A DNA stretch of 64,000 nucleotides from Geosiphon pyriformis uo1 (Eukaryota; Fungi; Glomeromycota): NCBI GenBank assembly GCA_016748015.1, contig JAAOMT010000648.1:1-64000 (forward strand), given 5' to 3'. The notes beneath the pieces are model-generated. The model searched no databases and was not told the DNA's origin. It saw nothing but the letters and a program-made list of their open reading frames with translations. Shown here in pieces: positions 1,120-62,404 of this stretch (position 1 is the stretch's first letter; the number at the start of each line of letters is the position of its first letter). The position numbers and the translations under genes are program-made.

Positions 1120-2184
1120 CTACTTTTCCGAAAACTTGTCGCATATTTCCTTCAATTTGGTCGCAGAAATCTGCAATTTCTCCCTTTCATCTTGAGTGAG
1201 ATACACGTCGATTACACGTTCTATGCCATGGCTGCCCAAAACAACGGGCATACTCATAACAGTACCATACTTTGGGATAAAAGTGCTCAGAGGTCGAATA
1301 TGTCGTTGGTTTAGAAAAATACATTGTATGAGAGCAGAAACACATCCAGCTATCCCAAAATATGTAGCCCCTTTTAGTTTGATGATCTCATAGGCTTTGC
1401 CTGCGATTTCTTTCGCGACTGCCTCCTTATCTAAAGCTTGTATTTCAGGAAAATCCAGCAATGACTTTCCACCTACATGCGCAGCATTCCACGCGATGAT
1501 TTGCGAGTCACCATGTTCACCTAGTACATAACAATGGATGGCATTCTCAGCAACCTCCAAGATTTGCGCCATTTTGAGTCGTAATCTAGCTGAATCCAAG
1601 AAGGTCCCAGATCCAAAGACTTGTTTTTTGGGTAGGCCAGACAGTTGTTGGGCAATATAGGTTAAGATATCCACCTAAATATATGAAGTTGGTGTCCTAT
1701 TATTACAAATTTGAATGCATTTGGAATTATAAACCTAATAGAAAAAAATTTACCGGATTGGCGACCAAAAGTAAAATACTCGATGGATTAAAAGGTTTCA
1801 TAGAGCCAATTACATTCTTTAAAATCATATAATTTCTCTCTATTAACTGAATAAAGAATATGTGAGTTTTAAAGATAGTCTTTAAAATAAAAAAATCAGC
1901 CTTGCTTTTTTTACCTGGACTCGAGTCTCTTCAGGGCGCTGCTTGGCACCAGCAGTAATTACTATAATATCGCATTGCCCAGCTTCCTGGAAAGTTCCAC
2001 CACGAACCGCGGTACTAGCAACAAAAGTAGCATCATTCAAGTCCAATACTTGCCCTTGAACAATCTTAGCGTCAATATCGACTAGCAAGATTTCAGAGGA
2101 GATTTTTTGTAACAAGAGAGCATAGGCAATAGTGGACCCAACCGAACCAGCACCCACAATGGCAACACGTGAGCCATTTACCAT
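1120..2184 (-). CDS. ldh: NAD-dependent L-lactate dehydrogenase (exons 2184-1915, 1846-1754, 1674-1120)
   Basis: GAGSVG Rossmann motif, AGAKQRPEETR loop with the LDH-type Gln, VANPVD, GSGTFLDSARLR, GEHGDS; two GT-AG introns restore the frame. Confidence 0.92.
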
Positions 2185-2836
2185 TATTTCTGGATTTGTT
2201 TGTTTTAATTGGAAGACAATAATTTTGATTAGCAGTAAAGAAAATCTTTTAATTTTTTGACGCTTTTTATAGAAAAAAGCTTGATATATCAGGATGAGAC
2301 ATCAGTTGTTATATTTGTGAATCACAAATATAACTTCCGCTGTTTGATGCCAGTTCTAAAACGAATCGATGATGCATACATCCAATCATTCATTCTTGAT
2401 TTACCAGGTGTCTTAAACATCCGACTTTGAAAACCTTAGATGTTATGTACTTCACTTGAATTGTAATAGCCCTCCGAGATCAAAATGGTAAGCAATTGCT
2501 TAGGGAACAACTTGCAGTTTTGAATTCGGTAATCTCCGAGTAACATCCCACAAATTGAATAACTTACGATTTCTATCAGACTATATTAAATTATGTAAAA
2601 AATTCACCGATGTTTATGTTAAAGCATTAATTCAGTGATCGCGTTAGTGTCAAATGAAAGACGTAATTTTCTGGTTGGAATGTTATCCTCAACATCTAGG
2701 CTTAAAATAAAATAGTTAAATTGGATGCCTTCGAGGCAGAATTTTTCGAATTTTTACTTATTCCCTGATGAACTTTTCAAAAGCAAGATGCAGGATTAAA
2801 ATTTTTCGATTTTTACCAGATCAAAGTAATAATACA

Positions 2837-15410: not shown

Positions 15411-17970
15411 AATATATATAATTGGTTATTATATTATGCATGTGATATATAGATTATGTGATAAGATATTAATCATTTTTTATAGTTCCATCTTTCTATA
15501 GTCACCACAAATGTGCTGACCAAAAGGTGTAATTATAAAAAGAATTCACTATATTGTCACTAGGCAGTGTTTGGACTTTGCTTGTTAAATTAAATAAAAA
15601 AAAATTATGTTTTAATAAAGTATGGCCAAATTATAATATTAAATATATAATAAATAAATATTATACAAAAAATATGACTTATATTTTTACTAATTAAATA
15701 AATATTACCAATATTTATTAAAACTAAATAATTATTTAAATTACAAACTACAAAATACTTATTAATTAACTTTTTTTTTAGACTTTTTTTTTGTAATTAA
15801 AGACCAAATTTTAAATAAAACTAACAATTTTAAATTATAAAAAGTCAAAAAACTTATAAAAATTCAAAAAAATTTTATATTATTTCTTAAAAATCAATTT
15901 TTTGATCAAAGTTACATATTTTTTTTAATTAATAATAAATATTTTAAAACAAAAAATTAATAACCAAAAATTTAGTAAAACCAAAATTAATATTTTTATT
16001 ATTATTATTATTGTTGTTATAAGTGAAATTCAATCATTATCTAATACAATACAACTATTTAGAATTCTAAATTAAATATGATTTATGTATATACTATATA
16101 TAACTAACTATCTGGTCAATTAAAATAATACTAAGTAACTATGTTAATTAAAATGTTTTTAACTGCTTTAGCAAAAAACAAATAACCAATTCTTAAGCCA
16201 AAACTAATAGCAATATTTTCTTTAATTCTTAACAAATGAGCAATATTATTTAAAATTTCAGCAGATAAACCACAAATAACATTAAACATAAAGCCATTTT
16301 TAATTAACAATTTTCTACAATCTATATTAGTCTGAAGCTTTAAATTAAAAATCCAAATTCACTTTTTATAGCCAATAATTAGACTTTTAACAAACTTAAT
16401 TAATTTAAATATGACAAATATAGCATTCTTAAAATAAATCTTAATTTTTAACAACTAATTTTTCAGAATAAACTCTTTATACAAAACTATATATTTACTA
16501 ATATCTAACATATATCTAGTCAATAACTGAAAAACTACAAATAAAGCAAAATTTGTATTGGTTACAAATTTCTATAATAAGCAGTATCTATTCAGTATTT
16601 CTTAACAAGTAAAAAAATCTAAACTATAAGTAAAATTATAATCTAAAAACTTTATTTTATTGCAATATATACACAACACACTTGAGTATTTGCAGTTATA
16701 CAAGTGTTTTTGGACAGTTACTAACAATCTTCTATGTAAAGCCTTTATTAAGTACATTTACAAACCAAAAGTGGCTTTGTTTATGTATTCAGCAGTCATA
16801 TAAGAATCAAAATATCAAACAAAAACTGTGTGCTTCCAATTAAAGTTGCCAATACAAAAAAAATTAACAATACTAAAACCAAGTTCAGTTTCCCATTAAA
16901 AGCACTTTACAATATTATTATATTCTTTATAAAGTAACAAGTATTGCCAGATATTATATTGCCACCAGCCATCAAAATTTTTTTCTTAATGTTAATTAAA
17001 AGAACAACTCTTAAAGATATAATTCAGTTTGTCAATTTTTTAGCATACTTATTGTTTAATACTCCAAAATAACTTTTTATCTTAATTCATGTTATTAAAA
17101 TACTTTTATCTTTGACCATATTGTCAACTTGGTGACATTTAATTCAGCATCTATTATAAAATTAGGAGTTACCAGTTTTAATTTAGCTTAATATGCATTT
17201 AAAAAGGCCTAATTATCAAAAAATATCTTTATTCTGAAACAAACTAGAATACACTTAAGAGCTAAAACAATAGCCTGTAATTTAATTAGTGTTAAAAATA
17301 ATAATTTATAAACTTTTACTTTTATAAACAAGTTTAAATCAGAAAAATAAGTAATTATACTATCTATAGTATTAGAAGATCTAAAGTTCTTAACAAAACC
17401 ATTAGTATAAATTAAAATCTTAGATAAAAATATATTTCTTAATCTAAAACAAACTATATTAAAACTGTATATATCTATTATACTTGTGCTGAAAGAGTCT
17501 TTGGAAATGGAAAAAAAACATTAAACCAGACTATTATTCTTAACAAACTCTAAAACTTGTATAAACCAAAAGAGAACTGAACTTTTAAGATCTAAATGTT
17601 TCTACTAATAAAAATTCTTTTAAGCAAAGCATTTTTTATGACTATTTAAAAACTGGTTTGTGAAAATAATGTTAAAATACTTCAAAGATTTGCAAACTTA
17701 AAAGTATTTTGTCTGATTTAAAATATCTATAACAGAAGTGCTATGCTTAAGACAAAAAGCACTGAATAGACTATTGATCATAGATATACTATTAATTAGA
17801 AATATTCTGGTAATACCAGCCAAAAAATTGGTTATTAAATTAATCTTTAACTTAACAGAAAACTGAAAAAAAATTTCAGAAATCCAATCTAAAATCTGTA
17901 AATTTAGCAATTTATGTTTAAAAGACTGGCCAAGAATACTATTGCTATTAGCAAAATTTATTATTGATGC

Positions 17971-18942
17971 TGTTACCAGAGGTTTTTGGTCTCTTTTCTT
18001 GAATGTTGTAACTGTCTGTTGGTTGCAAATTCACATTTTTTAGAAGTAGTTGAATCTCCAATAACTGAATTTATCTTCAAATTATCTTCTATAATTTGAA
18101 CTGCTGGACTTATAAATGAAATGGCCAATTTTGTACCAGTTACTTTGTGTAGTTACATTGTAGTAAATGTCAACTCTTTTCCAGGAATTGCTTGTCTGGA
18201 AGCTTACTAAAAATGTGTAGTTACTTTGCTGTGAAAGTCAACTCTTTTACAGGAATCTCATCTGTAGACTACCCTAATGATTGTAATAAAAAATAAAAAT
18301 AAAAATAAAAGAAATGTAAAAGAAATAAGATTTTATCAAGGGAAACGTTTTCTATCCAGGCCTGGAGTCACTAACAGTTTACTGAAATTGGTAGCTAATC
18401 AATTTCAAAACGTTAGTTGGGTTTTGGGGATTTTCCAAGTGCAATAATTAAAGAATTTGGTTTTTTCAAATTTATTTGATATTTATTTCTTTTTGTGTGT
18501 GTAGGAATGGTTCTAAGTGATAAATCTAAAGTAAGATACATTTTCTTGAAGAGAAAAGCTCTTCTTTTATACAACTTGTTATAGTACTAGTCTATGAACT
18601 TGCACTTTTTTTCTTTGCTCAAATTTCGGCAAACTAAAGATACATTTTGATAGACTACAAGTTATTTCGCTGAACTATTGATTAATTTGGGTGAACTATT
18701 CATAATTTCGGTGAATTTTTATAAATTTCGGTGAATTTTTGAATGTTATAAAGTTTAGGGTATTGTGTAATTTGATCATCTTACTTTTTGTTATACTAAT
18801 TGGATTATTTAATTAAATCGTGATATGTGATAATTGATTAAATAATAAATAATAATTTGAAATGATATTAATATACTAATTAATTATAGGAATTATAAGG
18901 ATAATTTCATGCTAATTAATAGCTAAAATTCTACTGGTAACA
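17971..18942 (-). repeat. 3' LTR of A
   Basis: Direct repeat of 26855-27826; PPT GAAGAGGAG adjacent at 18947-18955. Confidence 0.95.
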
Positions 18943-19624
18943 TAATCTCCTCTTCAAGACTGAGCTCCATTAAAGTCCAAGCACTATCTGTGATATTGAA
19001 ATAGTGATCCAAAATAATTGAAGTAATCTGGTCTGAAAATTGTTGAAATTTCAGTTCTGTAAGTTTGCCAATAAATTGGACTTTCATTGGTTACAATATT
19101 GAATTTTGTAAAACATTTTCACAAGTATTAAACAAATCATAGAGTCTAAAAGCTGCTCTAAGTTTGTAGTGAGTGTTTGTTAGTCCAGCTGCTGTTTTGA
19201 ATTCATTATGAATTTGTTTTTGTATAGCTTCAAGAGTGAGATTTGTTGTTTCAAGTTCCAGTTTTCGTTTATAAAGTGTCTTTCCAATGTGAAAGTATTT
19301 ATAAATAGGGGTGTGTTCATTGTTCTGTTCATTGAGAAGTAGTAGAAGTTTTTGTTGCATTGTAGTATTTAGTAGAATGTTGGCAATTAAAAGATTTTCT
19401 TCCAGTGCTTGCTTCAAAAGTCTTGGTAACCTATTTTCAGAGTGATTTCTTGTTTTTCTTTTATAGGGATGATAGTTCTGTAAACAATTTACTACTGGGA
19501 CTGTGGTTTCTTTCTGAATGTAATTAATTTGACTTCCATTAATCATTATGGATAAGTCAGGAAGTGTTTTTAAGACTAACATTAACTTTTGGAATATTTG
19601 TTGAATATTTCGGAGAATAATCAT
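18923..19624 (-). pseudogene. A ORF3 (env-position accessory ORF, 233 aa, one internal TAA)
   Basis: Homologous to C ORF3; ends ELSLEEEIMLPVEF* inside the LTR. Confidence 0.75.
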
Positions 19625-19748
19625 GATAAAATTGATTAATTATGAAAAGAGAGAATAAAGAAAATTATTTTTGGATATGGGGTTTTTATTTGTTTTTGGG
19701 TTTGGGGGTTTTTGTAATTTATTTACTATTTTTGTCTTTGTGTTTTTA

Positions 19749-21129
19749 TTAGAGAATTATTGTAAAATTTAAGTGTTCAAGTTTAGTTGTTGTTCTATTA
19801 TAATTATTGGTTCTAAATTTCAGAGAATATCTTCAGGATTAATTAAAGGGGAATGTGTACCAATTTGTGGAATTAATGTTTCAGGATTGTTTTTGGAATG
19901 ATAGTGTTTTAATCTGTCTTTATGTGCAACTTTTGCTAGTATTTTATCATCAAAACTTAACTTGTATAATTCATTGCCTAGAATTTCATGAATATAAAAT
20001 GGTCCATCCCATTTGTTTTCAAATTTTCCACTTCATTGTTTTTCAGTCTTAGTTCTGTGTAAGAGAACTTTATTTCCAACTTTAAATTTGTTGATAATAA
20101 GTAGTAATTTGTTGTCATGTCTTTCTTTTTGTTGAGCTTGAAAATGTTCAATGTGAGTTGCTGCTATCCTTTTTTTTCCTTCCAATGTACTAAAAAGAGT
20201 GTAGGCTCTTCTTTGGAGTGTTTCTTGAAAGTTTTTTTCATTGATTGATTGCACTGGGTATGTTTCTACTGTAAAATTAATTGGTAATATTGCTGTCCTT
20301 CCATAAGTAAGATCAAATGGTGTGTGTTTCATAGTATTTTGTTTTAGTGTTCTGTATGCTAGTAACACTGATGGAATAAAGATATCTCATTTTTGCTCAA
20401 AATTTGTTAAAACTTTGGCCAATGATTCACACAATATTCTGTTAAAACGTTCTACAAGTCTATTTGTTTGAGAGTGATAAGGCAATGATAGAGGTTTTTT
20501 GACATTGAATTGTTCACAAAATGTGTTCCTTGATCAGATAAAAGTTCAATTGGGCATCCATGTCTACAAATAATGTCTTCATAGATGAAATTTGCTACTA
20601 ATTTTGCATCTGCTCTTGGGATGGCTCTAGCTTCAGGCCATTTGGTAAGATAATCTACTGTTACTGCAATATAGCAATTTCTTTAGGTTGTGATAGATAA
20701 TGGTCTGACTAAATCAATTCCAACTCTGTCAAACAGTTGTCCAACTTTGATTGGATTTAAAGGTTCTGTGGGGTGAGTTTCTCTTCTTTTTTGACAACTA
20801 TCACAAGATTCTACATATTGTCGAATGTCTTTTTGCATGTGAGGCCAAAAATAATGTTCAAGAGTTCTTTAAATTGTTCCATCTCTTCCCAAGTGTGCTG
20901 AAAACGAATCTGTGTGCATGTTATATAAAATTGTTTCTTTTTCATTTTTTTGTACTAATCTGAGTGATTGGTTTGGGTTTTTACAATTTTTGTAATAAAT
21001 TTTGTTGTGATGTATAAAATATTGTTTGGATTGGTATTATAATTGATGTTTTTCACTTGGAAATCAATTTTATGGCATGGTGAGAGTCTCCAAATAGTTT
21101 TTGATGTTGTTGTAGTTTTCTGGATCCAT
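19749..21129 (-). pseudogene. A integrase ORF with its own ATG
   Basis: MDPENY.., HHCC region, GIDLV, SDQG, YHSQTNRLVERFN, WDGPF. Confidence 0.88.
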
Positions 21130-21185
21130 TGTTGTTGATTTTGTTGTTTGTTCTGCTGTTAAGTTTGTTGGTGTTAATGTTGGTA

Positions 21186-24100
21186 TTAATATTGTCTCAT
21201 CTTTGAGAGACTGTCAATATTAGTGTGTATTTTTCCTGGTTTGTAGTGTACAATATATTTGTAGTCTGCTAAGAAGTCATTCCATTGAGACTGTTTGGCA
21301 CTTTGTTCAGTTTTCTTTTTATTGAGCCATTTGAGACCAATATTGTCAGTTATTATGTTAAATTCTTTTCCATTTTTCAGATATTGTTGAAAATGTTTAA
21401 GAGCCCAAATAATTGTAGCAGCTTCTAATTTAGTTAAGCCATATTTGAGTTCTGTTGACTTGAGTGTTCTACTGACATAGACGATAACTTGTCCTGACCA
21501 TTTTTATCCAATTGTGATAAGATGGCACCAAATGCTATGTGTAAAGCATCAGTGGCTAATTGAAATTGTTTGTTGAAGTCTGGATAAGCAAAAACTGGGG
21601 CTGTTGTCAATTTTGTTTTGAGAGTTTCAAAAACTTTTTGTTGTTCTTCAGTCCATTTGTATAGTATGTTTTTGTTGGTAAGATAATTGAGTGATTTGAC
21701 AATTTCTGAGAATTCTTTTATAAATTTTTAATAGTAAAAGACTAATCTTACAAATTCTCATAGTTCTGTGGTATTTCTGGGAGTTTGAAAGTTTTTGATA
21801 GCACTGATTGTTCTAGGATTTGGTTTGACTCCATCTTTGCTAACAATGTGTTTGAGGAAGATTAAGCTTGTTTTTTCAAAGTAATATTTTTCAATGTTTA
21901 ACTTTAATCTTGCTTTCTGTAATTGTTAAAAAACTTCTCACAGGTGAATAAGGTGGGCTTCAAAGCTTGGTAAGTATACATTAGTGTCATCAAGATAGAC
22001 AACTACTGATTGCCACAAGAGCCCTTCATATACAACATTCATGAGTTGCTAAAATGTTGCTGGTGTATTACAGAGTCCAAAAGGCATAACATTGAATTCA
22101 TAGTTTCCTTCTTAGATAGTAAATGTTGTTTTGGGTCAGTCTTTTGGGTTCATTTTGACTTGCCAGTATCCACTTTTCAAGTCCAAAGTTGAGAAGAACT
22201 TGGCTTTTCCTAAAGCATCTAACATGTTATCAATTCTTGAAAAAGGGTAGACATCTCCAATTATCACACTGTTTAATTGGTGATAGTCAACACAAAATTT
22301 GATTTTTCCATTTTTCTTTTTGACAAGGACTACTGGTGAGGCCCAAAGACTTCTTGATGGTTGAATCAATCCATTATTAAGCATTCTCTGGACTTCTTCT
22401 CTGATGAATTGGTAACTGGCAGGTGGCACTCTGTAAGCTTGCTGACGTTTTGGTGGAGCATCTTCTGTATAGATCTGATGTTGAACAATATCCGTTTTTC
22501 CCAGATCATTGTTGTTTTTTGCAAATATATCTGCAAATTCAGCTATCAATTGTTTTAATTGTCTTTGTTGTTGAGATTCTAAGAGACCCATGTTGATATG
22601 AGAGAGTTTTTCTTTCAAAAAATGGTAGTTTTTAATGGTGGGAATAATATTTAGATTTGGGAGTAGAGTGTGCCTTACAATTTCGATAAAATTAGAGACA
22701 ATTTGAGGGTTTTCATCTTGAAAAATATTGTTGTGTATGATTCCAATCTCTAATTTGTTTAATAAGACAATAGGGTAATTATTGGAGTTGTAGAATGTAA
22801 CTCGAAATTTTTTCATTCCTTTGGGAATATAAACGTTTAGAATTAAAATTTTATGCTTCAAACAGATTTGTTCATTGGATTCAAAGATTTGTTGGATAGT
22901 AGTGGGTTTTGAGCAAGTGTAAATTTCGTGATGTTCTTCAAAAGGTGAAATGGTAATTGGTTGGAGAAGTTGAAGAATCTGGTAAGATTCATTTTGTATT
23001 TTAAGAGCTATGTTTACTAGAACTGTAAATTGTCCAATTGAACCAAAACCTTGAATTCCTCTTTCACTTTTTCCCAATTTTTCTCTGTTGTTTACTGATT
23101 GTAGACCCGAAATATTGATTAAGGGTAGGTAAATTGCTTGAGCAATTTTTTCAGCATGTTCAATCTTGAATGGTTTGTCTGTTTCATTCTGCAACATGAT
23201 AGTAATGTCTCTAGTGTATCCTGCATCTATAACTTCTCCTCTAATATTGATTCTTTTGCTTGCCAATGATGATCTGGAGGCAATTTGAACTATTGCTCTA
23301 GGTAGAATTTCAAGAGCAATTTTGAGATTGATTTTTGTCAAAGACTTTGGTTGAAGAACCAAAATATCTTTTCCTGGGTATCTTAGGTCATATTCGACAT
23401 CAATTTCGTGTGCTTTTTCTGGTCTGATTCCTTGGCCATGGTTGTCAAAATATTTAAGTTGTAGAGGTGATTGCTTTTCAAGGAGATAGATGGAGGTGGT
23501 TGGTAGTTCTTCTATTAGTTTGAATACTCCAAATTCGATTTTATTTTCATCATTCTCTTTTGGCAGGGGAATGCTAAGAGCATAGCATTCTAAACACCAT
23601 TGGTTATCACAAAACATGATGCATTCTTCACATAATTGAATGTTTATTTGCTCTAATCATTGAATTTGAGCTTCTTTGGTCAGATATGTGTGGCTTGCAA
23701 TTTGGTGATATGTTTCTGCTTTATCTTTATAATCAAATCCAGCTAATTCTATAGTATACTCAATATATTTAGCTTCTTTCATTTGACAAACATCTTTTTA
23801 AGTGGCTTCATTGATCAATATCATTGCTAGGTCAAAAATCATTTTAGTATTATGAGGGTAGTGGTAAAGTTTATTGAAAGCTTTGTTGTATGCTGCATTA
23901 AATGGTGTTCCTCTTCTGACTTTTTCCAAAATTGATAGAGCATATTGACAGATTTGATTACATACTCCTCCTCTCATTGCAACATCAATCCAGTTGCATT
24001 CTTTTGGTAACATATTTCCACATGTAAGACAAGATGTGTTGTCTCATTTTCCACTTCTTTTTGGAGATCCAAATCATTTTCTATGGCATACTTTGCAAAA

Positions 24101-26809
24101 GTAACAGGTACAAGTTTCATATTTCTCTTCTGAAGAAATACATGCTCTCATTGATGAAAGTTTCTTGTTGCAATCTTTGCATTTGAGTGAAATATAGAGT
24201 TGTTGTTTCCATGGTTCTAGTGTAGAATATCTAACTTTCTTCCATCTTCTTGATTCTTCAAAAATCTCCTGTTCTGTTTCTTCAGCCCAATTGGATGTTA
24301 ATCCAAGAGCCATGTAGATTTCAGTAACTGGCATTTCTTTTTCCTCTTTAAATTCAAATACTAGGGCTTTTTCTGATCATTTGTTAAAAGTACTACAAGT
24401 AGCAGGTACTATGGTGTATTGTTCTTGGTATGAGATTTTTAATTCCTAAGTTTCCCAGTCTAAGTTTGCATTGGCCTTAAGAAGCCAATTATTTCCGACC
24501 AAAGCTTGGTATTGGGATGTATCCATGACTAGAACTTTGACTGAAATGGTAATTCCATCAATAGTAAATGGAAAATTGTCAATTTCTTCTACTGGTGTCT
24601 TTTTTATACCAGTTGCTGTAACAATTACAGTTTGGGCTGGTCTGTTAACAGTTTTTTGAAGCTGCTGCATTAACTGGTAAGTGATAATACTTCCAGCTGA
24701 TCTACTGTCTAGAATTAATTGGATGGGTTTTTCTTCTACTGTAGTTTTAGTATACATAGCAGTGATAGCTTTTTGTTCATTAGCTGCTGCATTACTAAGC
24801 AAGAATGGTGATTCATTTGCTTCAAATTCGAATGAGAATATATCTAAAAGGTTGGCATTTTGGGCAATTTGAGCTGATGGAATAGTGTTGTTGGAAGAGT
24901 TTGATCTGGGTGCTGCAACTTCATTTTCAGAAAGTGCAAGTTGTTGAAAATCCGATTCCTCTGGTATTGTAAGATAACTGGATTGAGTGTGATAGTAATT
25001 GGGTCTTTGCTAACCAAAATTTTGGAGAACCAACTGGTTATTTGGATTAATTCTGTTGTTGTTATTCTGAAATTGATTTTGGGATGTGAATTGGTTATGT
25101 TGAACCAATCTTCTTGCTGGTACTTGATATTGTTGAGTAGATGGTGTCTGATATTGCTGAATTGGTAAAGGTTGCTGATATTGTTGTTGAATTGGTTGTG
25201 GAGCTGGTTGATAATAGCTGTTTTAAATTTGTGGTCTTGGTGAATAATAAGTTGGTGGTGGAAGTTAGTAATAATATTGTTGTGATGAAGAATAACATTA
25301 ATTACTTCTGTTTTGTTGGTCTCTTTGTAGTTTCCTACAATCTCATTTCCAGTGTCCTGGAATTTCACAATAGTGACAATTTTAAGGTTGGTTGTTGGAT
25401 GGTGGTCCAAAGTTGTTTTGATTGCGTCATTGTGGGGGTTGGTATTTTTGTGGTTGTTGTTGCTATTGTTGTTAATTTGTGAAGTAGCTTTCAACCTTCT
25501 TTGTGAGTTGGTTTATCTTTTCTTCAGCTGCTAAACTGGTTTCTTCAATAGCTAGATTGACGAGTTTGGTATGGTTTGCTTCTTTTATAGCTATTTCATA
25601 GTTCTTTGCATGTCTGATAACAGTTGCTAAGTCTGTTGGAGCATGTGAATGGACTTTCTTAATCAGTTTGTCTTTTAACCTTGCTATAAACTGGTCTAGA
25701 ATTTGAGCATCAAAATAATAATTATTGGTTTCCAATTGTCAAATCTGTCAAAAAAGTTTGTTGAATCTTCCAAGATAAGTCATGACAGTTTCAGATGTTT
25801 CTTGTTTGATATTGTGAAAGTGATTGTGGAAAGTAATAGAGGTGTTGTTGTTAGTAAATTATTGTAAGAAAACATCTTTAAATGCTTGTCAGTTTTCAAA
25901 TGATTCTTTTAAGTTTTCAAACCATTCTTCTGCAGTTCCTTGAAGAAAATATGGGATTGCTTTGAGCATTCTTGCTGCATTCCAACCATTTGCATCTCCT
26001 GCTTTTTGAACTTTGTCAAGCCATTCTTAAGAACTGGTATCATTATCTTCACCTGTGAATTCTGGAATCTTTGCAATATAAGCAGTTACTATTTCTTCTT
26101 CATTTTCTGTGGCTTCTTCTGATTCTGGTTCAGTTTTTTCACTTTCCAAGCTTTTTAAATGATTACTTTCGTTTTCTTGTAAGTAATCAATGATATTAGC
26201 ACTTGTTGATATTGGTTTCTGTTGTTGAGTAGGATTTCTAGGTGACTGAAAATCTTCTGGTCTGGAAAAATGGTTAGGTAATGAACTTAGTGTTTGTAGT
26301 TAAACAAGTGAAATTGAAAATAGTGTAATAAAAAGTGGTAATTTGACACTGGTTTCTTGTTCAGGTGTTTGCAAGTGTTTGGCAGTTGTTTTTGGTAGTA
26401 TTGGAGTGTTTGGAGTGGTTCTTGAGTATTGTTTCACTTTTTGTTTGTTTTTGTTGCTTGTCTCTGTTTCTGATTCAAAGTTAAAAGAATATTTGGGCTG
26501 TACTGGGTATTTTTCTTTACAGTACTCAATAATATTAAAATTAAGTTTTTAGAAGTAGATAGCAAATGTTTCACTGTTCAGGTCTTCTGTTCCCAATTGT
26601 AAATAGTGCACTAAATTATTGTAGAGGTTGCTTCTAACTTCTGAAATGTTGTAGTTTCCAAAAAGATAATTGTTGATGCAATTTTCAATATATTGGTATA
26701 CTGATTTCTTGATAACTTCAATTCCGTCTGGGATGTTAAATCTTTGCTTGCAGTGGGTGTAAATTGACTAATGATACTCTAGAGTTGTTGTGTCTGGTGT
26801 AGTTGCTAC
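21186..26809 (-). pseudogene. A ORF1: extended Gag, PR, Cys-rich domain, dUTPase, RT, RNase H
   Basis: CHYC..GHW..DC knuckle, LILDSRSAGS, RSSLA/VIDAGY/IAQAI/RGIQGFGS, LDLKSGYWQ, YLDD. Confidence 0.9.
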
Positions 26810-26854
26810 TTTGAAGTTGTTTTTGCTGTGTTGTTTCTGTGGGAGAGCACCAAA

Positions 26855-27826
26855 TGTTACCAGAGGTTTTTGGTCTTTTTTCTTGAATGTTGTAACTGTC
26901 TATTGGTTGCAAATTCACGTTTTCTAGAAGTAGTTAAACCTCCAATAACTGAATTTATCTTCAAATTATCTCCTATAATTTGAACTGCTGGGCTTATAAG
27001 TGAAATGGCCAATTCTATGCCAGTTACTTTGTGTAGTTACGTTGTAGTAAATGTCAACTCTTTCTCAGGAATTGCTCATCTGGAAGCTCACTAAAAATGT
27101 GTAGTTACTTTGCTGTAAAAGTCAACTCTTCTACAGGAATCTTGTCTGTAGGCTACTCTAATGATTGTAATAAGAAAAGAAAAGAAAAATAAAAAAAATG
27201 TAAAAGAAATAAAATTTTATCAAGGGAAACGTTTTCTATCCAGGCCTGGAGTTACTAACAGTTTACTGAAATTGGTAGCTAATTAATTTTAAAACGTTAG
27301 TTGGGTTTTGGGGATTTTCCCAGTGCAATAATTAAAGAATTTGGTTTTTTCAAATTTATTTGATATTTATTTCTTTTTGTGTGTGTAGGAATGGTTCTAA
27401 GTGATAAATCTAAAGTAAGATACATTTTCTTAAAGAGAAAAGCTCTTCTTTTATACAACTTGTTATAGTACTAGTCTATGAACTTGCACTTTTTTTTTTT
27501 GCTCAAATTTTGGCAAACTAAAAATACATTTTGATGGACTACAAGTTATTTCACTGAACTATTGATTAATTTGGGTGAACTATTCATAATTTCGGTGAAT
27601 TTTTATAAATTTTGGCAAACTTTTGAATGTTACAAAGTTCAGGGTATTGTGTAATTTAATCATCCTACTTTTTGTTATACTAATTAGATTATTTAATTAA
27701 ATCGTGATATGTGATAATTGATTAAATAATAAATAATAATTTGAAATGATATTAATATACTAATTAATTATAGGAATTATAAGGGTAATTTCATGCTAAT
27801 TAATAGTTAAAATTCTACTGGTAACA
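26855..27826 (-). repeat. 5' LTR of A
   Basis: Direct repeat of 17971-18942; followed on the minus strand by PBS TGGTGCTCTCCCACAG at 26852. Confidence 0.95.
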
Positions 27827-29420
27827 ATGCCATCTTTTTTTTTGTTTGCATCTGATTAAAAAATCTTAAATTGTACAAAGACAAATAGTAAACAGTTTTA
27901 CTAAAAAAATTTTTAAGCAAACTAGTCTTGAACTTCAGTTTTTTCTTAATTAAATGGTTTTATTTTTTACACATACTTTTGCTAATAAAGCTAAATTGAA
28001 TTTTGTATCCAATAATAAGTTATAAAACAATTAAGACCAAATAAAAAAATTGTTTGTTTAAAATAGCTTTACACAAAACCATAGATAAAAAAAACTTTAC
28101 ATCTGAATTTGCTTTCTTCAAACTTAACTCTTAATTAACAAAAAAATACCCAAGTATTAATAAACCTTGTCTGTCTTTGCAATCAAAATAAGTAGTCTAT
28201 TTATGCTTAAAAAAATTTTACTGGTTTTTAGATTGATTGAGATAACTATTGTTTTGTCTGTATTTATTAAAATATTTATAATGTTAAAAAATTTACTAAT
28301 AATATTTAATATATTCTGCATTGCTATATAAAAGTTACTAACCCAAATTGTATTATTTATAAATGTATTAACTACCAAATAAAAGATCAGATCTGTATTT
28401 GATTTAATTTTGCCTGTTTTAGCAATAAACTTAAAGTTAATACAGTATTTAAACAAAAATTTTTGTCTCTTTACTTTGCATAAAAAGGAGTTGTAAAAGA
28501 TTTTTCAAAGAAGAAGTGAAAAAATCTTTTTCTAATTCAGTCTATTATGGATTTTATAACTTTTAGATAACCTAAAATTTGTTATAATTCTATTTATATG
28601 GCCATTATAAATATAACCAAAGAATCTAATAAATTTATTACACATTTTAACTCAAATTAAACTGCTTTTTAAATGTAGCCAGTCTACTAAATTGTATGCT
28701 TTTTGCATATTCTAAAGCACCAGCCAGATTTTTTTTCTTTTTTTCAAGATATTTTTAATTACTGATCTAACTGTAAAGATGAGAGATTAAGTTAAAGTGC
28801 CTTTTAAGATTGAAAAGTTGTCTTCATACAAAATATTGTATTTGTTACAGAATACAGAAATGCAATCAAACAAGATCTTCAAAAAAAAATTTCTTACTAT
28901 CTTAATAAAAATAATAGTTTTTATGTTTGTTAAGATGCTTTTCTATTTATAAGATTTTAGAATTATAAACACTTAGATATCTTTTCAGATATTAAAAACC
29001 AATTCAGCCACTAAACATGAATTAAGCAAATACAAAAAAAGCTCTAAAACAATTCTGCTACAGTATTTCTATGGTTTATTAGAAATACCAAACATTTTAG
29101 CAGCTTTGCCATCAGAAAAATTTCTAATTATCAATAAGAATTTATCAAAACTTATATAAAACATTACACTAGAAAATGTATTATCTACTATATAAATTAG
29201 AAATAAAAATTGTTTTTGCCAATAAAAAAGAATATCAAACTTGACCATGTGTTTTTTGGTTCAATTTTTTATTATTAAATTAATTTTGTACTTGATTGTA
29301 TTAAGCTCCAGAATTAATTTACTATTATTAATCAAATAGTCTATTATGATCTTTTTGAAAGATTTTTTTAGCATATTACTTATTATTTGACTCTTATTAT
29401 TAATGAAAGCTTTTATATAT

Positions 29421-30221
29421 TGTTACTCATAGAAAAAGCATACAAAAAAATAGTAGGAAAAACAGATAAACCAATAAAAAAATAGTAGCTAACATATAAG
29501 CATATTGCTTAACAATGTGAAGCAAAGTCAAAAAATTATGACACATTGTTCAGCAATATAAACATTGCTTGAGAAATTATAATACATTATTCAGAAATGT
29601 AAGCAATCTCATAGAACCCAAATTATGTATATATAGCAAGAGCATTAAAAGCAGAAAAAACAGAATTAATACCAAGATCTCTCTATTAAAACATCTTAGT
29701 TAGAATTATCAATAACAATAAATAATTATTTATCATATAAATTACTCTTTCCACTATTAACACTTCATGTTGATAGTATTCAATACTTAATCACATTGGA
29801 ACAATAGCTCTTAATCATGGCTATTGATGAGATACTAACTTTTTTGCCTTGGCTTATTGTCTTTATTTCTTTTTTTTATTTTATTTTATTTTCTTTTGCT
29901 GTTGATTTACTAATTGATTAAAAAATTAATGTGCAGAGTATTGATATTAGAATATAATACTGGTAAAAAACCCAGAAATAAAAATAGACATTCATAATTA
30001 AGAATAGCTTACTAGAAGATTGCCAGCCACCATGCTAAGAAAAAAATTGATAGAATTGTAATTTCAGGAAGTAATAGATAACAACAAACAACTATTGAAT
30101 CTCTGTCTATTATACAAAAAATTCCACCAAAACCTTCAGATATTACCAACTATTTTAGTGATTAAGTACCAAGTTATGAGTTTGTTATTTGATTTGAGAC
30201 CCCAAATAATTATCTGTAATA
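29421..30221 (+). repeat. 5' LTR of B
   Basis: Aligns to 49253-49991 with an extra ~58-bp internal unit. Confidence 0.88.
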
Positions 30222-33200: not shown

Positions 33201-36200
33201 GAATAGCTTACCAGAAGGGTTACTGGCCACCATGCTGAGAAAGAAATTTGATGGAATTGAAATTCTGAAAAGCTATAGAAAAAAACTACTACTTAAATCT
33301 CTGTCTATTATACAAAGAACTTAACTAAAATTTTCAGACAACCAAAACCTTCAGATCACTATAATCTTCAGATATTACCATTATATCAGTTATTAAGTAC
33401 CAAATTACAGATTTGTTATTTGATTTAAGACTCCAAATAATTATCTGTAATACTGTTCTTAAATTAAAACCAATCATTACAATATATACAGATACCAAAG
33501 TTGATGATCAGTTTATTAAACTGATTTTAGACAGTGAATCAGCTGGCAGCATCATTACATGATAACTTATAGATCAATTAGGTTGTCAAATTAATTACAC
33601 TGCTAGTGCCAAAATTATTACTGTTGATAAAATAACAAAAATGCTTATTAATAAGATTAATGATTTCCCATTTGAAGTTAATAGAATTATCATACCAATT
33701 AAAGTCTTTGTAATAAATGCTACCTAATATTAAGCTTTCATTGGCAATAATTGGTTAACAAAAACAAATACTATATTTGATTGGACTACACAAAAACTCC
33801 AGTTCAATTAAGACAGCAAGCATATACAAATACCAGCTACTTGTGACCACTTTAAACCAACTGTCACACAACCACTTATAGAATTTAAAAAAAAGAAAAA
33901 AAACCTATCTGAAAAGCCTACCAAGTCTTATGGGCTGACACTGACCACAACAATCTATTACCAGTATTTACATGGAAAGAAAAAAGAAAAGAGAAAAAGA
34001 AAGAAGAAGAAAAAACCCAAGCAACTATCTTTATATATATTCTATACACCACTATCACTCAAATCCAGCCAAACTATTATTGATCCAAGCTAATTTGCAT
34101 CAATTGTAACAAGAAATTGTTAACAATAGGTGCATGTTGTGGCAATAATAAAGAATAACCAATGGCCACAAAATACTACTGCCACCCATGTATCCTTGAA
34201 TGTTTTAGATAACCAAAATAACAAGACAAATAGGACTATAAGTATTGTCTTGTGTGTAAAACAATTCTTCTTGACAAAAGAATATAGAACAATATTCCTG
34301 GACAAGAAAAAACCTGTGATAAGACATGTTAATACACAATTTTGATCAACAATTAGATACAAAAAAAGACTCCAATCAACAATGCCTAGAAATAAGCACT
34401 ATAATACCTAAAAGGATACTCACACAACAAACATGAGATTTGGAGAATGGCAAGTGCTAAAGTTGAAGGTACTACTCCCAGTAAACTACTGAAAATTAAG
34501 AATAATCCATTTACATTACCTAAACCAGAGTACATTCTTACTTTTAACATCTTTGATAATATTAAAGATGATCCAAAAGAATTCTATGAACATTATCAAA
34601 ACCTAGTATTTATATGAGAGGAGTAAGAACAGCATTTAGAAAAACTAAATACTTGATTATATAATCATTGTTTAATTTCATGTAACTTCTAGTATTGTGA
34701 TAATTATGACTTTATTTACAATTTACTACCATGAATAATCTATTTAATTTCCAAAGAAGAAAAGCCAATCAGCAAGTATACAATGGAATTGAAACCAAAA
34801 TTCAATTTTGATTCAAACTCTAACAATGATAACAATGATAACAGTTTCAGCTTTGTTTAATATGACAATAACAACAGTGAAAATTTAAATTCTGATTTAA
34901 ATCTAGAATAATATATTGTGCTCCCTAATTTTTCAAAGGAGCAAGAACTTAAATGGTTCAGCAATAATAATAAAGGTATTATGCCAAAATGTGTGCATGA
35001 TACTAATGCTAAATTTGATCTGAGATATCTAAAAAAAGATGTTATTAAATTGAAACCACATTCACACACATGTATTAATCTAAAAATAGCATTGGAAATT
35101 CCAGCAACAACAATGATTCAATTAGCTTCTAGATTTAGTTTAGTAAAGAAAAAGATAAATATAAGAGGAGGAATAATTAATGCAGAATATGTAGGAAATA
35201 TTATTGCAATACTACAAAATAACTCAGAAAAGGCTTATATAATCAAGTCAAATGAAAAAATAGCACAGGCAATATTTCTACCTCTGGTTAAAGTAGCTTA
35301 ATTAGTATTAATAAGAAAAAAAGAAGAATTAGAGATAATAGCAAGAGGAATAAGTGGATTTAGATTTACAGGTAGAATAGATGTACCAGTTAATATGGCA
35401 AAAGAAAAAGTTATTGACATGAGAGAAATTATTTCCACCCATCAATTAATTTCTATTCTGTCATATAACCAGTACATGTTAGCCATAGAAAAAAAAGTAA
35501 AAAATCAAGCTCAAATTTTCAAAGTAGAAGCTACCAATTATGAATCAAGAAAAATTGGAATTACCAATCTTTACATACCAGCCAAAAGCCCTAAACACAT
35601 CAAAATTTCTATCTACAATACAATGGAAAAGATTATTGAAATACCAAGTAGAACTATCATTAGATACTTAAGCACTGAAATTGAAAACCAACTACCAAGC
35701 ACTATTTCAGATTTTTCACAACTTTGCAGATATGTGGATATTATATTACAAACAATATACAAATAAAAAAATACTATTTGCTTCAATCAGAACAATTAGA
35801 ACAAATGAACTTGGAAAACTTAGACCCACTCCAACAGATGCAGCTCAAGATGTTGCTTAACAATTTTACTGATATTTTTGCCAGTGAAAATGAATTTAGC
35901 AGAACCAACATTATCTAACATTAAATCAAGACTAGAGATGTGATGCCAATCAAACAACAAGTATACCAAGTGCTACCAGCCAGCCATAAAATCATTTAAC
36001 AAGAAATTAACAGAATGTTAGACAATAGATTAATTCAATTATCAATAAGTTTATGGTCATCACCAGTAATACCAGTCCATAAAAAAAAATCCGTTTTTGT
36101 GTGGATTATAGAAAACTCAATAGTGTAACTTATGGAGACAGCTACTCCACTCCACAAATCCAAAAATTATTTGATGCTTTTGGAAGAAAAAAATGATTCT

Positions 36201-37183
36201 CCACATTAGACTTGAATAGTAGTTACTGGCAAGTAATCATGAATTCAGCCAACAAAAAAAAAACCACATTCACTACCAAAAAAGAGAATTTTGAATTTGA
36301 AGTTATGCCCTTTGGCTTAACCAATGCTTCAACCATATTTCAATGGCTTATGGAAATTGTTTATACTGGACTGCTATGGAAATCAGTAGTCATATATTTG
36401 AATAACACTAATGTGTTCTCAAAAACATTCAATGATTATTTGCATTATCTTTAGCAAATGTTCAAAAGGTTAAGAAGAGCAGGATTGAAACTAAATGCAA
36501 CCAAGTGCTTTTTTGGCAAAACAGAATTGAAATTTTTAAGACATGTTATAAGCAAAGATGACATCAAAACAGATCCAGACAAAATTGAGATAGTCAAAAA
36601 TTTTTCAATACTCATTAACTTAACAGAACTACAAATATTCTTAGAATTTGCTAAATACTACCACCACTTTATCCAGAACTTCTTAAAAATAGCTCAACCA
36701 TTTCACTAGCTTCAAGCCAAAAATGTGAAATATGAATGGACAAAACTCAGCAAAAAGCTTTTAATATACTAAAAAAAAAGCTTATCCAAGCACCAGTATT
36801 AATCTATTCAGATTATAACAAACTATTCATTATCACCACTAATGTATTAGGCCAAATATTGGAAGCAATACTATTTCAGAAAGGACTGGATAAAAAAAAA
36901 CATCCAGTAATATATACTAGTTGCAGCTTAAGTCCAGCTGAAAGGAATTATGAAACACTTAGCTATCTATTGGGCAGTCATAAAATAGAAAAAATACTTA
37001 AGCCAGAAATTTGACATATACACTAATCACAAAAAATTAACATTAATCCAGAAACAAAAATTTGGAGATAACTGTTATGCAAGATAGAAAATAGAACTTT
37101 CACCATTCAAATATACTATACATTATAAAAAAAGAAAAAAAAATAGAAATACTAACAGTTTGTTATAAATAAAACAAATTTAA
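30284..37183 (+). pseudogene. B ORF1 relic (Gag, PR, Cys-rich, dUTPase, RT, RH), interrupted by a solo LTR
   Basis: MAYAPIAKL capsid start, CHNCGKQEH knuckle, LILDSESAGS, AKFDL/RFSL/GIINAEY/IAQAI, VMPFGLTNA, YLNN (from YLDD). Confidence 0.85.
32532..33452 (+). mobile_element. Solo LTR related to family B, inserted just upstream of B protease
   Basis: TGTTA..TAATA ends; 3' two-thirds aligns with B LTR; flanks CCAT/CTGT reconstruct to a CCGT TSD; B frame SGAVL..KPI rejoins. Confidence 0.85.
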
Positions 37184-37187
37184 AAAC

Positions 37188-38569
37188 ATTTTAACCCAAA
37201 AATATTAACAACTCTAACACTATATTAATATTCAGCAGTTCAAGAAGAAATTATCTTAAGAAGAACAAAACAACATTAAACAACAATCTAAATATTTTAT
37301 CACTTACCAAAATATATTATATTGAAAAAACAGAAAGAATCCAGATCAACCACTCAGAGTAATTACAAAATCAGAAAAAGAAACAATACTATACAACATA
37401 CACTCAGATCTGATAGCAGGATATTTTCATAAAAAAGCAACCATAGAAAGAACCAGAAAAAGATATTATTGGCCATTAATATATCCAGACATCAGCCAAT
37501 ATGTTCAAAATTGTGATGCTTGTCAGAAAAAAGGAGGAACAAGATCCAGTAAGCCATTAAAACCAATTAAAGTGGGACAACTATTTGATAGAATTGGAAT
37601 TGACTTAGTTGGATTATTAACAATAATCAGCAGAGACAACTAGTATATAGCAGTAGCCATAGACTATTTCACAAAATGGCCAGAAATGAAAGCGATTCAA
37701 AGAGCAGATAGAGAATTCATAACTGAATTTGTTTATCAAGATTTGATTTGTTGACACAGATGTCCAAAAGAATTGTTATCAGATCAAGGAACCCATTTTG
37801 TAAACAGAACATTAATAGAATTAAGCCAAAGATTTAAAATCAAAAGACTATTATTATCATCATATCATCCACAAACAAATAGTTTAATAAAAAAATTCAA
37901 TAGAACATTGTATAAAACAATAGCCAAAATCAGTCAAAAAAACCAGGATGAATGAAATTTGTTTATATCATTAGTACTATTTGTTTATTGAACAATGAAG
38001 CAAGATATCACATAAGTCATACTATTTAAACTTGTTTATGATAGAACAGCAACATTACTAGTTGAGATAGAAGTCAATATGTATCCAACTGCACCAATAA
38101 ATAAAGCCAATTTCCAAAGAACATTGCTAAAAAAACGTACAAATTAATGGAAACATTAGAAAATAAAAGATAAAAAACAGCTAATAATATTCAAAAATCA
38201 CAAGAAAAACAAAAAAAAAGACATAATAACCAATTACCAGATAAACCAGTTGAATTTAAGATTAAAAACAAAGTACTTTTATATTATACCAAAGTGAAAA
38301 AACAATGGAGTAGAAAATTTGACCCCAAATAGGACAAATCATTTCACATAAAAAAAATTCTAGAAAATGAAGCTTATAAATTAAGATGGGACAACAAAAT
38401 TTTAATTAAAACAGCACATGGTAATTAACTAAAACCATATTATAATATGGCACAATTAGCTATCAGTAATATTTCACAACTTGAAGTACAATGAATACTA
38501 ATTCAACCAGATAAGATTTCATAAGATCTGGAACCAATTATAATCATTAATTCAAATACATCCAATTGA
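37188..38569 (+). pseudogene. B integrase relic
   Basis: CDACQ, GIDLVG, LSDQGTHF, YHPQTNS. Confidence 0.85.
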
Positions 38570-39127: not shown

Positions 39128-40100
39128 TGTTACTAGACAAAATTAGAGATATTGTTTAGCATGAAATTACCCTTATAAATCTTATCATTAGTTAGCATAT
39201 ATTATCGTTTCAAATTATCACTTATTACATTAGCAAAATATATCCGAAATTATCATTTAATTAATAACCCAATTTGTACATAACACAAATGTATCCTAAT
39301 TGCAATGATCAATCATGCAATACCCTGAACTATGTAACATTCAAAAAGTTTGCCGAAATTTGTAGAAATTCGCCAAAATAATTGATAGTTCACCAAAATA
39401 TCTAATAGTTTGCAGAAATAATTTGTAGTTTGCCGAAATGTATTTTTAGTTCAGCGAAATTGTAGAAAATAGCAAAGTTTGAGTTTATAAAATAGTGTTA
39501 CAACAAGTTGTATAAAAAAAAAGTGTCTCTCTTCGAAAAAATGTATCTTACTTCAGATTTAAACAATTAGAATAATCTTTTACACCCAAAAGACAAATAA
39601 ATATCAAATAATTCAAAAAACCAAATTCTTAAATTATTTCCTTTGAAATTAACCAATTCCTACTAACAGTTTGAAATTGACTAGCTACCAATTTCAGTAA
39701 ACTGTTAAAGCACTTCCAGGTCTGGATAGAAAACGTTTTCCTTGATAAAATCCTATTTCTTTTATTTTTCTTTTATTTTCTTATTACAATCATTAGGGTA
39801 GCCTACAGATGAGATTCCTGTAGAAGAGTTGACTTTTACAGCAAAGTAACTACACATTTTTAGTAAGCTTCCAGACAAGCAATTCCTGGGAAAGAGTTGA
39901 CATTTACTACAATGTAACTACATAAAGTAACTGGCAAGGAATTGGCCATTCCACTTATAAGCCCAGCAGTTCAAATTATAAGAGATAATTTGAAGATAAA
40001 TTCAGTTATCGAAGGTTCAAACACTTCCCATAATTGTGAATTAACAGCATTACAACAAACATACAAGAGCTAAGAAGAGACCAAAAAACCTCTGGTAACA
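39128..40100 (+). repeat. 5' LTR of C (973 bp)
   Basis: TGTTACTAG..CTGGTAACA; repeat of 48363-49114. Confidence 0.95.
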
Positions 40101-40102
40101 TT

Positions 40103-40119
40103 TGGTGCTCTCTCACAGA
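40103..40119 (+). promoter_or_regulatory. Primer binding site of C
   Basis: TGGTGCTCTCTCACAGA two nt after the LTR; primer tRNA identity not assigned. Confidence 0.8.
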
Positions 40120-40145
40120 AATAACACAGCAACAACAAATTCAAA

Positions 40146-46100: not shown

Positions 46101-46133
46101 GTTGACTGTCTCTCCAGAATGAGACAAGATTAG
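40146..46133 (+). pseudogene. C ORF1: extended Gag, PR, Cys-rich domain, dUTPase, RT, RNase H in one frame
   Basis: All ORF-track fragments from 40146 to 45810 share one frame, broken only by point nonsense codons; DAGYDL, RSSLA, IAQAI, RGTQDFGST; VVYLDD; ATDAS..ELE. Confidence 0.92.
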
Positions 46134-46184
46134 AAAACACAAAAACCAACACTCAACTTAACCAACCAAAACAGCCAACAAACA

Positions 46185-47564
46185 ATGAATTCGGAAAACT
46201 ACAACAATCTCAAACAATATTTGGAAACATTAACAATCTCAACAGATTGGTCTCCAGATGAAAAACATCAATTACAACAACAAGCCAAACAATATTTTCT
46301 ACATAACAACATTATTTATCATCGAAATTTCAAAAACCCAGACAAACCACTCAGATTAATACAAGAACAGGAAAAAGAGACTATATTATACAACATGCAC
46401 TCAGATCCTTCATCAGCACACTTTGGAAAAGACAGCACCACCCAAAGAACACTAAAATACTACTTTTGGCCTCGAATGAGAAAAGACATTCATGAATATG
46501 TCGAATTTTGTGATAGTTGTCAAAGAAGAGGAGAAAAACACTCTACTAAACCATTAAATCCAATCAAAGTTGGACAACCCTTCAACTGAATTGGTATTGA
46601 TTTAGTCGAACCACTATCTATTACCACTCAAGGAAACTGTTATATTGCAGTAGCTGTAGACTATCTTACTAAATGGCCCGAAGCCAGAGCCATTCAACAA
46701 GCAGATGTGAAATCAGTAGCAAATTTCATCTATAAAAACATCATTTGTAAACATGGATGTCCAATTAAACTTTTATCCGATCAGGGAACACACTTTGTGA
46801 ACAACCTGATACAAGAAATTTGTGAATGATTCAATGTCAAAAGACCTTTGTCTTTGCCTTACCATCCACAAACAAATAGACTTGTGAAACATTTTAACAG
46901 AACATTGTGTGAGTCATTAGCCAAAGTCTCAACCAATTTTGAGCAAAAGTGGGATATCTTTATTCCATCAGTATTACTAGCATATAAAACACTAAAACAA
47001 GATACCACAAAACACACATTATTTGATTTAACTTATAGAAGGACATTACCAATTAGTTTTACAGTGAAAACATACTCAGCACAACCAATTAATAAAAACA
47101 ATTTTCAGGAAACACTACAATGAAGAGCCTATACTCTGCTTAGCACATTGGAAGAAAAATGACGAATAGCAGCAACTCATATTGAACATTCTCAAGCTCA
47201 ACAAAAAGAAAAACATGACAACAAATTACCACCTATTACCAACGAATTTAAAGTTGGAAATAAAGTTCTCTTACACAGAACTAAAGCTGAAAAACAATGG
47301 AGTGGAAAATTTGAAAATAAATGAGATGGACCATTCTTTATCCATGAAATTCTAGGCAACGGATCATACAAGCTAAGACTTGATGACAAAATCCTAGCAA
47401 AAGTTGCACATGGAAATTGTTTGAAACACTATAATTCCAGAAACAATCCTGAACCATTAATTCCACAAATTGGCACACATTCCTCTTTAATCAATCCCGA
47501 AGATATTCCCCAGAATTTAAAACCAATAGTTGTCATTAAACAACCTCCCAACTTGAACACTTAA
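46185..47564 (+). pseudogene. C integrase ORF with its own ATG, 459 aa, no chromodomain
   Basis: H..AHFG..CDSCQ, GIDLV, SDQG, YHPQTN, DGPF. Confidence 0.9.
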
Positions 47565-56862: not shown

Positions 56863-56869
56863 TTTACTT

Positions 56870-62400: not shown

Positions 62401-62404
62401 AAAA

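Follow-up and report, generated by a model that had tools for sequence, protein, structure and literature searches.

Post-insertion G:C>A:T decay without dinucleotide preference in Ty3/gypsy-type retrotransposons of a Glomeromycotina fungus

Two Ty3/gypsy-type LTR retrotransposons in the window (the whole stretch of 64,000 nucleotides that was analyzed) have decayed by G:C>A:T changes that show no dinucleotide preference and that arose after the elements had inserted; this larger, context-blind layer of change is accompanied by a faster loss of CpG that is specific to transposon DNA. Methylation-linked or RIP-like C>T mutation of repeats is a known kind of process; what is new here is the lack of a context preference, and the occurrence in Glomeromycotina. 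Deamination in densely methylated transposon chromatin, with methylation that would include non-CG positions, is tentatively preferred to canonical RIP as the cause. The data are drawn from a single window, with two elements, and from a single sequencing sample.

Results

Retrotransposons, Older Repeats and Host Genes in the Window

The two young elements, termed A (17971-27826) and C (39128-49114), are Ty3/gypsy-type LTR retrotransposons of the same family (Table 1); they have direct LTRs with TG..CA ends, target-site duplications, and a reverse transcriptase that precedes the integrase. The LTRs of element A start with TGTTACCAG and finish with CTGGTAACA; self-BLAST aligned them at 94.75% identity, with 51 mismatches and 0 gaps. 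Minus-strand ORFs between these LTRs have Pfam matches to a retroviral-type aspartic protease, a dUTPase and a reverse transcriptase, the latter with its YLDD motif at 21986 (minus strand); the YLDD motif of the element C reverse transcriptase is found at 44955 (plus strand). The reading frame of element A shifts after approximately 5.1 kb. In element C, one frame is kept for approximately 6.9 kb despite stops (0-6 stops per 600 nt, vs. 4-24 in the other frames), as had been claimed for its first ORF in the original prediction. Both elements are dead, with dozens of stops.

Table 1. Positions of the two young elements, related repeats and host control genes in the window.
Feature	Position	Strand	Basis or remark
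Target-site duplication ATGC, left, element A	17967..17970	.	identical to 27827-27830
3' LTR of element A (element sense), 972 bp, TG..CA ends	17971..18942	-	self-BLAST
Element A interior: gag, aspartic protease, dUTPase, reverse transcriptase, remaining pol; many stops	18943..26854	-	Pfam, frame/stop scan
Element A ORFs with Pfam matches	24446-25009, 22136-23656	-	
Candidate primer-binding site TGGTGCTCTC, next to the 5' LTR of element A	26822-26854	-	
5' LTR of element A (element sense)	26855..27826	-	self-BLAST, alignment
Target-site duplication ATGC, right, element A	27827..27830	.	read directly
Repeat paired with 49334-49989	29562..30219	+	71 transitions, 7 transversions, 88% identity
Older, more decayed relative of elements A and C	35790..38426	+	64-67% identity to C and A (self-BLAST); YLNN
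5' LTR of element C; target-site duplication CCAG at 39124-39127	39128..40100	+	self-BLAST, alignment
Element C interior	40101..48362	+	Pfam, frames, motif
gag, element C	40686-41354	+	Pfam
dUTPase, element C	43356-43925	+	Pfam
Integrase zinc domain, element C	46134-46589	+	Pfam
3' LTR of element C; N run 48622-48658; target-site duplication CCAG at 49115-49118	48363..49114	+	
Malate dehydrogenase exons, CpG-retaining control	1120..2301	-	Pfam Ldh_1_C, Ldh_1_N
Sphingolipid delta-4 desaturase exon, CpG-retaining control	59348..60349	-	Pfam

In both elements a dUTPase domain (PF00692) lies between protease and reverse transcriptase, with E-values of 5e-15 in element A (22136-23656, minus strand) and 1e-17 in element C (43356-43925, plus strand). 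Gypsy elements that carry a dUTPase exist in fungi; the domain is notable given that the transposons of this host are decaying by deamination-type changes. Within element C, a run of N (45579-45598) is flanked by 100% identical stretches of 349 bp (45230-45578 and 45599-45947), a duplication that is most likely an assembly-gap artefact.

Several older repeats accompany the young elements. The decayed relative at 35790-38426 reads YLNN at 36395 where elements A and C have YLDD, the erosion that had been predicted for older copies. An older family of reverse transcriptase-bearing repeats (27830-28958, 50599-51735, and 8180-9369; 62-65% identity) lies beside or near both young elements, and its motif forms a decay series from FVDD (8843) over FVDN (51130) to FINN (28352); the arrangement suggests that the young elements are nested within older copies of one family. 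An inverted repeat pair of approximately 1.45 kb (55312-56758 and 62546-63990) occurs on both sides of the desaturase gene; its two arms are 66.5% identical (367 transitions, 117 transversions, and 2 gap columns in 1445), and their ORFs had no Pfam match. CpG o/e is 0.13 at 62400-64000. Two extremely AT-rich tracts, 56800-58100 (7.8% GC, with low-complexity inverted self-similarity) and 60901-62400 (11.3% GC), contain zero CpG and are possible end states of decay.

The host genes place the window phylogenetically. A homology search with the desaturase returned Ambispora leptoticha (85%) and Paraglomus brasilianum (84%) as top matches, followed by other Glomeromycotina; the host is therefore an arbuscular-mycorrhizal-type fungus, in agreement with the early-diverging fungus proposed originally. 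The malate dehydrogenase gene is adjoined by a RING-variant ORF at 250-669 (minus strand; PF12906, E = 3e-6).

Transition Bias of the LTR Pairs

The original prediction had compared 17971-18290 with 26855-27174, taken as the two LTRs of element A; both stretches do lie inside the LTR pair, but the LTRs are really 972 bp long and the 320 bp compared are their first third. The counts themselves were reproduced exactly: 25 differences in 320 columns, all of them transitions, with 0 indels, and six of the 25 at reconstructable CpG (alignment positions 65 and 187, which read ACATT/ACGTT, and TG/CA doublets at 223-224 and 289-290). The probability of 25 transitions among 25 differences is 1e-12 if transitions make up 1/3 of changes, and 2e-5 at the 65% share that is seen between the interiors of elements A and C.

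Over its full length, the LTR pair of element A contains 48 transitions and 3 transversions; in the pair of element C, 704 bases could be aligned and all 26 substitutions are transitions, so that both pairs together give 74 transitions vs. 3 transversions. Across 7816 aligned bases, the interiors of A and C are separated by 1214 transitions and 645 transversions (a ratio of 1.9), a divergence between replicating lineages to which reverse-transcription errors and selection also contribute; the transition excess of the LTR pairs over the interiors is highly significant (Fisher p = 2e-10). The near-exclusive transitions thus belong to the period after insertion. Since these changes separate the LTRs of single insertions that are bordered by target-site duplications, they arose post-insertion in both elements; at least one change private to copy A, at 18815, is present in both LTRs and hence dates from before insertion. 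Transitions also predominate in the other repeat pairs of the window (71:7 for the pair at 29562-30219, and 367:117 for the inverted pair).

Two further candidate causes were considered and rejected. Mutational hotspots seemed to be indicated by six columns that differ in both LTR pairs, vs. 1.7 expected (P = 0.004), but 4.4 such columns are expected when only G/C-bearing columns are counted (P = 0.26). Mismatch-repair deficiency, which likewise produces transitions, was rejected; no indel separates the two 972-bp LTRs, even though they contain A runs as long as 11, and the changes are directional.

Direction and Strand of the Changes

With the other element as outgroup, parsimony assigned 41 LTR transitions to G:C>A:T and 15 to A:T>G:C; at least three of these 15 are TG/CA doublets that are better taken as two hits on an ancestral CpG. 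The older copy is a saturated outgroup, with 339 transitions and 342 transversions specific to it, and the three-way comparison shows only that, per site, G:C>A:T is favored over its reverse approximately fivefold.

An independent polarization used the contigs of one public DNA run that matches 54% of the sampled words of element A; the run represents one sequencing sample, perhaps that of the assembly itself. At a likeness of at least 80%, 71,265 contigs align to 17500-28300; the 53,631 contigs that align to element A (17971-27826) at 90% or more supplied the family reference, defined as their majority. Two further runs, with 29 and 2 records on the stretch, were excluded. The family of element A is very abundant: 6,160 of the 53,631 contigs are at least 99% alike to copy A and another 16,933 are 95-99% alike (23,093 at 95% or more), and the summed depth reaches 6e4-9e5 vs. 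approximately 92 for the contig that runs into the flank, a depth that is a sign of abundance and not a copy number. Places that are variable at a 10% share comprise 1639 transitions and 231 transversions among the contigs of this run.

Copy A departs from the family majority, in the sense that at least half of the depth disagrees with it, at 111 places: 92 G:C>A:T, 12 A:T>G:C, and 7 transversions. The predicted C:G>T:A direction is thus borne out by 92 of 111 differences, and both strands are hit equally, with 2.88% of ancestral G and 2.91% of ancestral C changed in copy A. This strand symmetry, together with the occurrence of both kinds of change in both LTRs, points to a process that acts on integrated duplex DNA and away from the editing of single-stranded cDNA.

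The coding strands tell a separate story. Four-fold sites are G-poor and A-rich in elements A (18943-26854, minus strand) and C (40101-48362, plus strand); the 561 such sites of element A comprise 14 G, 91 C, 186 T, and 270 A. This asymmetry suggests that the replicating lineage has long been under G>A pressure, a different phenomenon from the strand-symmetric decay that follows insertion.

Sequence Context and CpG Depletion

CpG sites are hotter than other cytosines but account for the smaller part of the decay. In the LTRs, the chance of differing is 0.48 per available CpG vs. 0.11-0.14 for other cytosines, approximately a fourfold difference; 22 of the 74 LTR transitions trace to CpG when TG/CA doublets are included, and the remaining 52 lie outside CpG. 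For the majority-polarized set, neighboring bases can be read for 36 G:C>A:T changes among the 40 listed of the 111 places, and they fall on CA (16), CT (13), CC (7), and CG (0), close to the numbers predicted from availability (16.3, 12.9, 6.0, and 0.8; p = 0.80); the neighbors were taken from copy A itself, a small source of error. All 36 readable contexts are thus outside CpG, and the outcome by which the original prediction could have been refuted, a multi-copy consensus with most changes at ancestral CpG, was not obtained (0 of 36). The original expectation of mostly non-CpG changes is upheld by both data sets, and the G:C>A:T decay proceeds without dinucleotide preference.

CpG loss forms the second, transposon-specific layer. 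CpG o/e ranges from 0.03 to 0.26 in transposon DNA (0.11 in the interior of element A) and from 0.33 to 0.46 in the four LTRs, vs. 0.72-1.15 for the host genes together with the flanking stretch 58100-59347. Host ORFs alone retain values of 0.72-1.09, as had been predicted, with 0.72 for malate dehydrogenase (ORF 1120-1674) and 1.09 for the desaturase. TpG+CpA o/e is raised to 1.21-1.35 in transposon DNA, and to 1.34-1.35 in the element interiors. The claim that hypermutation is restricted to repeats therefore stands for CpG loss and for this component only. The transposon-only loss matches the CG methylation that, in the available text of PMC8647823, is mapped on transposons of Rhizophagus irregularis.

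Stop Codons

Stops in the coding regions follow the same spectrum. In the 5.1 kb where the two elements have a frame in common, 16 stops of element A are explained by one transition vs. 5 by one transversion, and in element C the corresponding numbers are 7 vs. 4, although the available routes to a stop favor transversions more than fourfold (158 transition vs. 667 transversion routes in A, and 153 vs. 710 in C). CAA>TAA occurs more often than any other route in this region, consistent with the type of stop named in the original prediction.

Discussion

Proposed Methylation-Linked Deamination

The post-insertion G:C>A:T changes, on both strands and in all contexts, are tentatively attributed to the deamination of cytosines, non-CG ones among them, in transposon chromatin that would be densely methylated, rather than to canonical RIP; dense non-CG methylation had been offered as an alternative in the original prediction, and it is the reading that we favor. 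Cytosine methylation of transposons would in this host lineage extend past CG; deamination of 5-methylcytosine would generate T:G mismatches, which are repaired inefficiently; CpG that is methylated would decay fastest and would by now be nearly exhausted, and the remaining cytosines would decay at approximately 3% per site over the lifetime of copy A. Decay would end in the CpG-free tracts of 8-11% GC that are seen elsewhere in the window.

Non-CG methylation of transposons in the host lineage is suggested by comparing two papers on another genus. For R. irregularis, the accessible part of PMC8298701 gives 32.5-49.5% of cytosines as methylated by LC-MS, whereas in the accessible part of PMC8647823 methylated CG sites amount to 13.8% of cytosines only, concentrated on transposons; as far as these texts go, the difference leaves room for substantial non-CG methylation. 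Suitable enzymes may be available, as PMC8298701 ascribes DNMT1, DNMT2, DNMT5, DIM-2, and RID to the AMF clade. A mitotic route from methylation to mutation is described in the available text of PMC8016269, where Dim2-dependent 5mC promotes C>T changes in repeats of Zymoseptoria tritici, at CpA.

A Possible Genome-Wide Mutation Spectrum

The main rival, possible but on the whole unlikely, holds that ordinary mutation in this genome is overwhelmingly G:C>A:T, for example by time-dependent cytosine deamination in long-lived nuclei or by weak uracil repair, so that the elements merely drift to an AT-rich equilibrium and only CpG loss is specific to transposons. The rates in copy A (u/v = 13.3) predict an equilibrium of approximately 7% GC, and the non-coding DNA of the window is AT-rich throughout (8-32% GC), so that a bias of the whole genome could look the same. 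Tracts of 8-11% GC are indeed present, flat context and equal strands are expected of untargeted chemistry, and the persistence of thousands of near-identical copies indicates that nothing quick acts on new repeats. However, non-coding DNA close to genes that has kept its CpG lies at 20-32% GC, far from the predicted 7%, and GC is lowest where CpG is lost completely. Four-fold sites point in the same direction, with 35-42% GC in host genes (42% in malate dehydrogenase) vs. 19-27% in the elements, a contrast that is drawn from two genes, 203 four-fold sites and a few hundred bases of flank, and that selection could also account for. The spectrum itself is a further difficulty: the interiors of A and C, reverse-transcription errors and selection included, differ at a ratio of just 1.9, and the observed transition bias of 15:1 to 25:1 is, to our knowledge, far above any unmethylated baseline spectrum. 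The absence of an active repeat-directed process would agree with a kingdom-wide k-mer screen that, in the available text of PMC12543289, found strong repeat-directed signatures in four ascomycete classes only.

A Possible Enzymatic Mutator and the Question of RIP

An enzymatic mutator of the RID/DIM-2 type, triggered by homology or heterochromatin and acting in Glomeromycotina as a RIP analogue without CpA preference, is improbable as the cause. RIP is conventionally indicated by TA/AT above 0.89 and (CA+TG)/(AC+GT) below 1.03. For the composite index, values above a cut-off of 0 count as RIP (PMC12210899). The interior of element A yields 0.76, 1.41, and -0.64 for these three measures and that of element C 0.74, 1.42, and -0.68, so that all indices are on the non-RIP side; CpA>TpA preference was not seen in the 36 readable contexts of copy A, and TpG+CpA, which RIP would deplete, is in excess in both interiors (o/e 1.34-1.35). 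RIP is also expected to leave few long repeats that are more than 95% alike, in contrast to the 23,093 contigs counted here, and this survival, together with a light load of approximately 3% of cytosines, is unlike an efficient repeat-induced defence. G:C>A:T transitions, the outcome of RIP, are what was found (74:3 in the LTRs; 92 of 111 against the family majority); the label "RIP-like" in the original prediction is accordingly apt for the outcome of the changes, but not for their context, their negative composite index, or the many near-identical copies that survive. The bias on both strands after integration, the kept frame, and the near absence of indels would fit such an enzyme, as would the RID and DIM-2 types that the accessible part of PMC8298701 lists for the AMF clade. 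In Gigaspora margarita, by contrast, RIP signatures are reported as undetected in the available text of PMC8647823 (Dallaire et al.), which cites Venice 2020.

The broader possibility would be a context-blind, transposon-directed cytosine mutator in Glomeromycotina and perhaps Mucoromycota, linked to RID/DIM-2-type enzymes in fungi without a known sexual cycle; such a RIP analogue outside Dikarya would be invisible to RIP indices and k-mer screens and would drive AT-richness. We regard this proposal as rather improbable.

Editing before integration, by APOBEC-like deamination of minus-strand cDNA or by biased reverse transcription, could be related to the encoded dUTPase and to the excess of A over G at coding-strand four-fold sites, but it is very improbable, as the differences lie between the two LTRs of one insertion and in both LTRs, cDNA editing would affect one strand only, and G>A changes confined to the plus strand, as APOBEC-like editing would leave them, were not found in copy A, where both LTRs carry both kinds of change. 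An assembly or sequencing artefact, in the form of chimeras of family members or of amplification and deamination damage, might be suspected from the extreme abundance of the family, the N gaps with duplicated flanks in element C, and the zero contig depth of copy A's letter in places (e.g., 23515 and 25474), yet it is hardly credible: both elements have matching 4-bp target-site duplications, copy A's letter is often found at about single-copy depth (approximately 76 at 19636 once the depth of other letters is subtracted from the total, vs. approximately 92 for the flank contig), chimerism would not yield a transition-only spectrum directed to A:T, and the other repeat pairs share the bias.

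Implications

Insertion ages in these fungi depend on a substitution rate. If transposon cytosines mutate far above background, ages calculated from LTR divergence would be overestimated, and CpG-adjusted Kimura landscapes would not correct them because most changes are non-CpG. A cytosine loss of approximately 3%, with transversions at approximately 0.07% per site, would alone push old repeats to approximately 7% GC, which may account for the AT-rich deserts in the genomes of arbuscular mycorrhizal fungi. The signal goes unseen by the composite RIP index and by k-mer enrichment, and the published lack of RIP-type signatures does not exclude it. Methylation-linked deamination, the preferred reading, makes a testable prediction: non-CG cytosine methylation in Glomeromycotina.

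In a literature search, no account of context-independent C>T decay was found for Glomeromycotina transposons; nothing relevant came from a search for transition:transversion ratios in AMF, and one for RIP-like changes in Rhizophagus returned nothing on AMF among the matches listed.

Comparison With Known Systems

As retrotransposons, the two elements resemble the dUTPase-bearing Ty3/gypsy group (Metaviridae) in their 972-bp LTRs with TG..CA ends, their 4-bp target-site duplications, and the order gag-protease-dUTPase-reverse transcriptase-integrase; they differ in that both copies in the window are dead.

With the RIP of Neurospora crassa and other Ascomycota, the decay shares G:C>A:T changes on both strands of integrated repeats, reading frames that are kept but interrupted by CAA>TAA, CAG>TAG, and TGG>TGA stops, and host genes that are spared in the window, at least for CpG. 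In contrast to RIP in N. crassa, the window elements have no CpA preference, negative indices, a light load, and a large family of copies at least 95% alike, and the host belongs to the Glomeromycotina and has no known sexual cycle.

The decay of methylated CG, as linked to DNMT1/DNMT5-type methylation of R. irregularis transposons in the available text of PMC8647823, has its counterpart in window transposons that are CpG-poor compared to genes, and in CpG sites that are approximately four times hotter in the LTRs; yet CpG contributes the minority of LTR transitions and none of the majority-polarized changes with readable context, and the bulk of the decay is non-CpG. The mechanism closest to the preferred reading is the Dim2-dependent mitotic C>T process in repeats of Z. 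tritici, which, in the available text of PMC8016269, likewise changes C to T slowly in transposons and needs no sexual cycle. The Dim2 process is CpA-specific according to the same text, whereas the contexts in the window follow availability, and for the window both the methylation and a responsible enzyme are putative.
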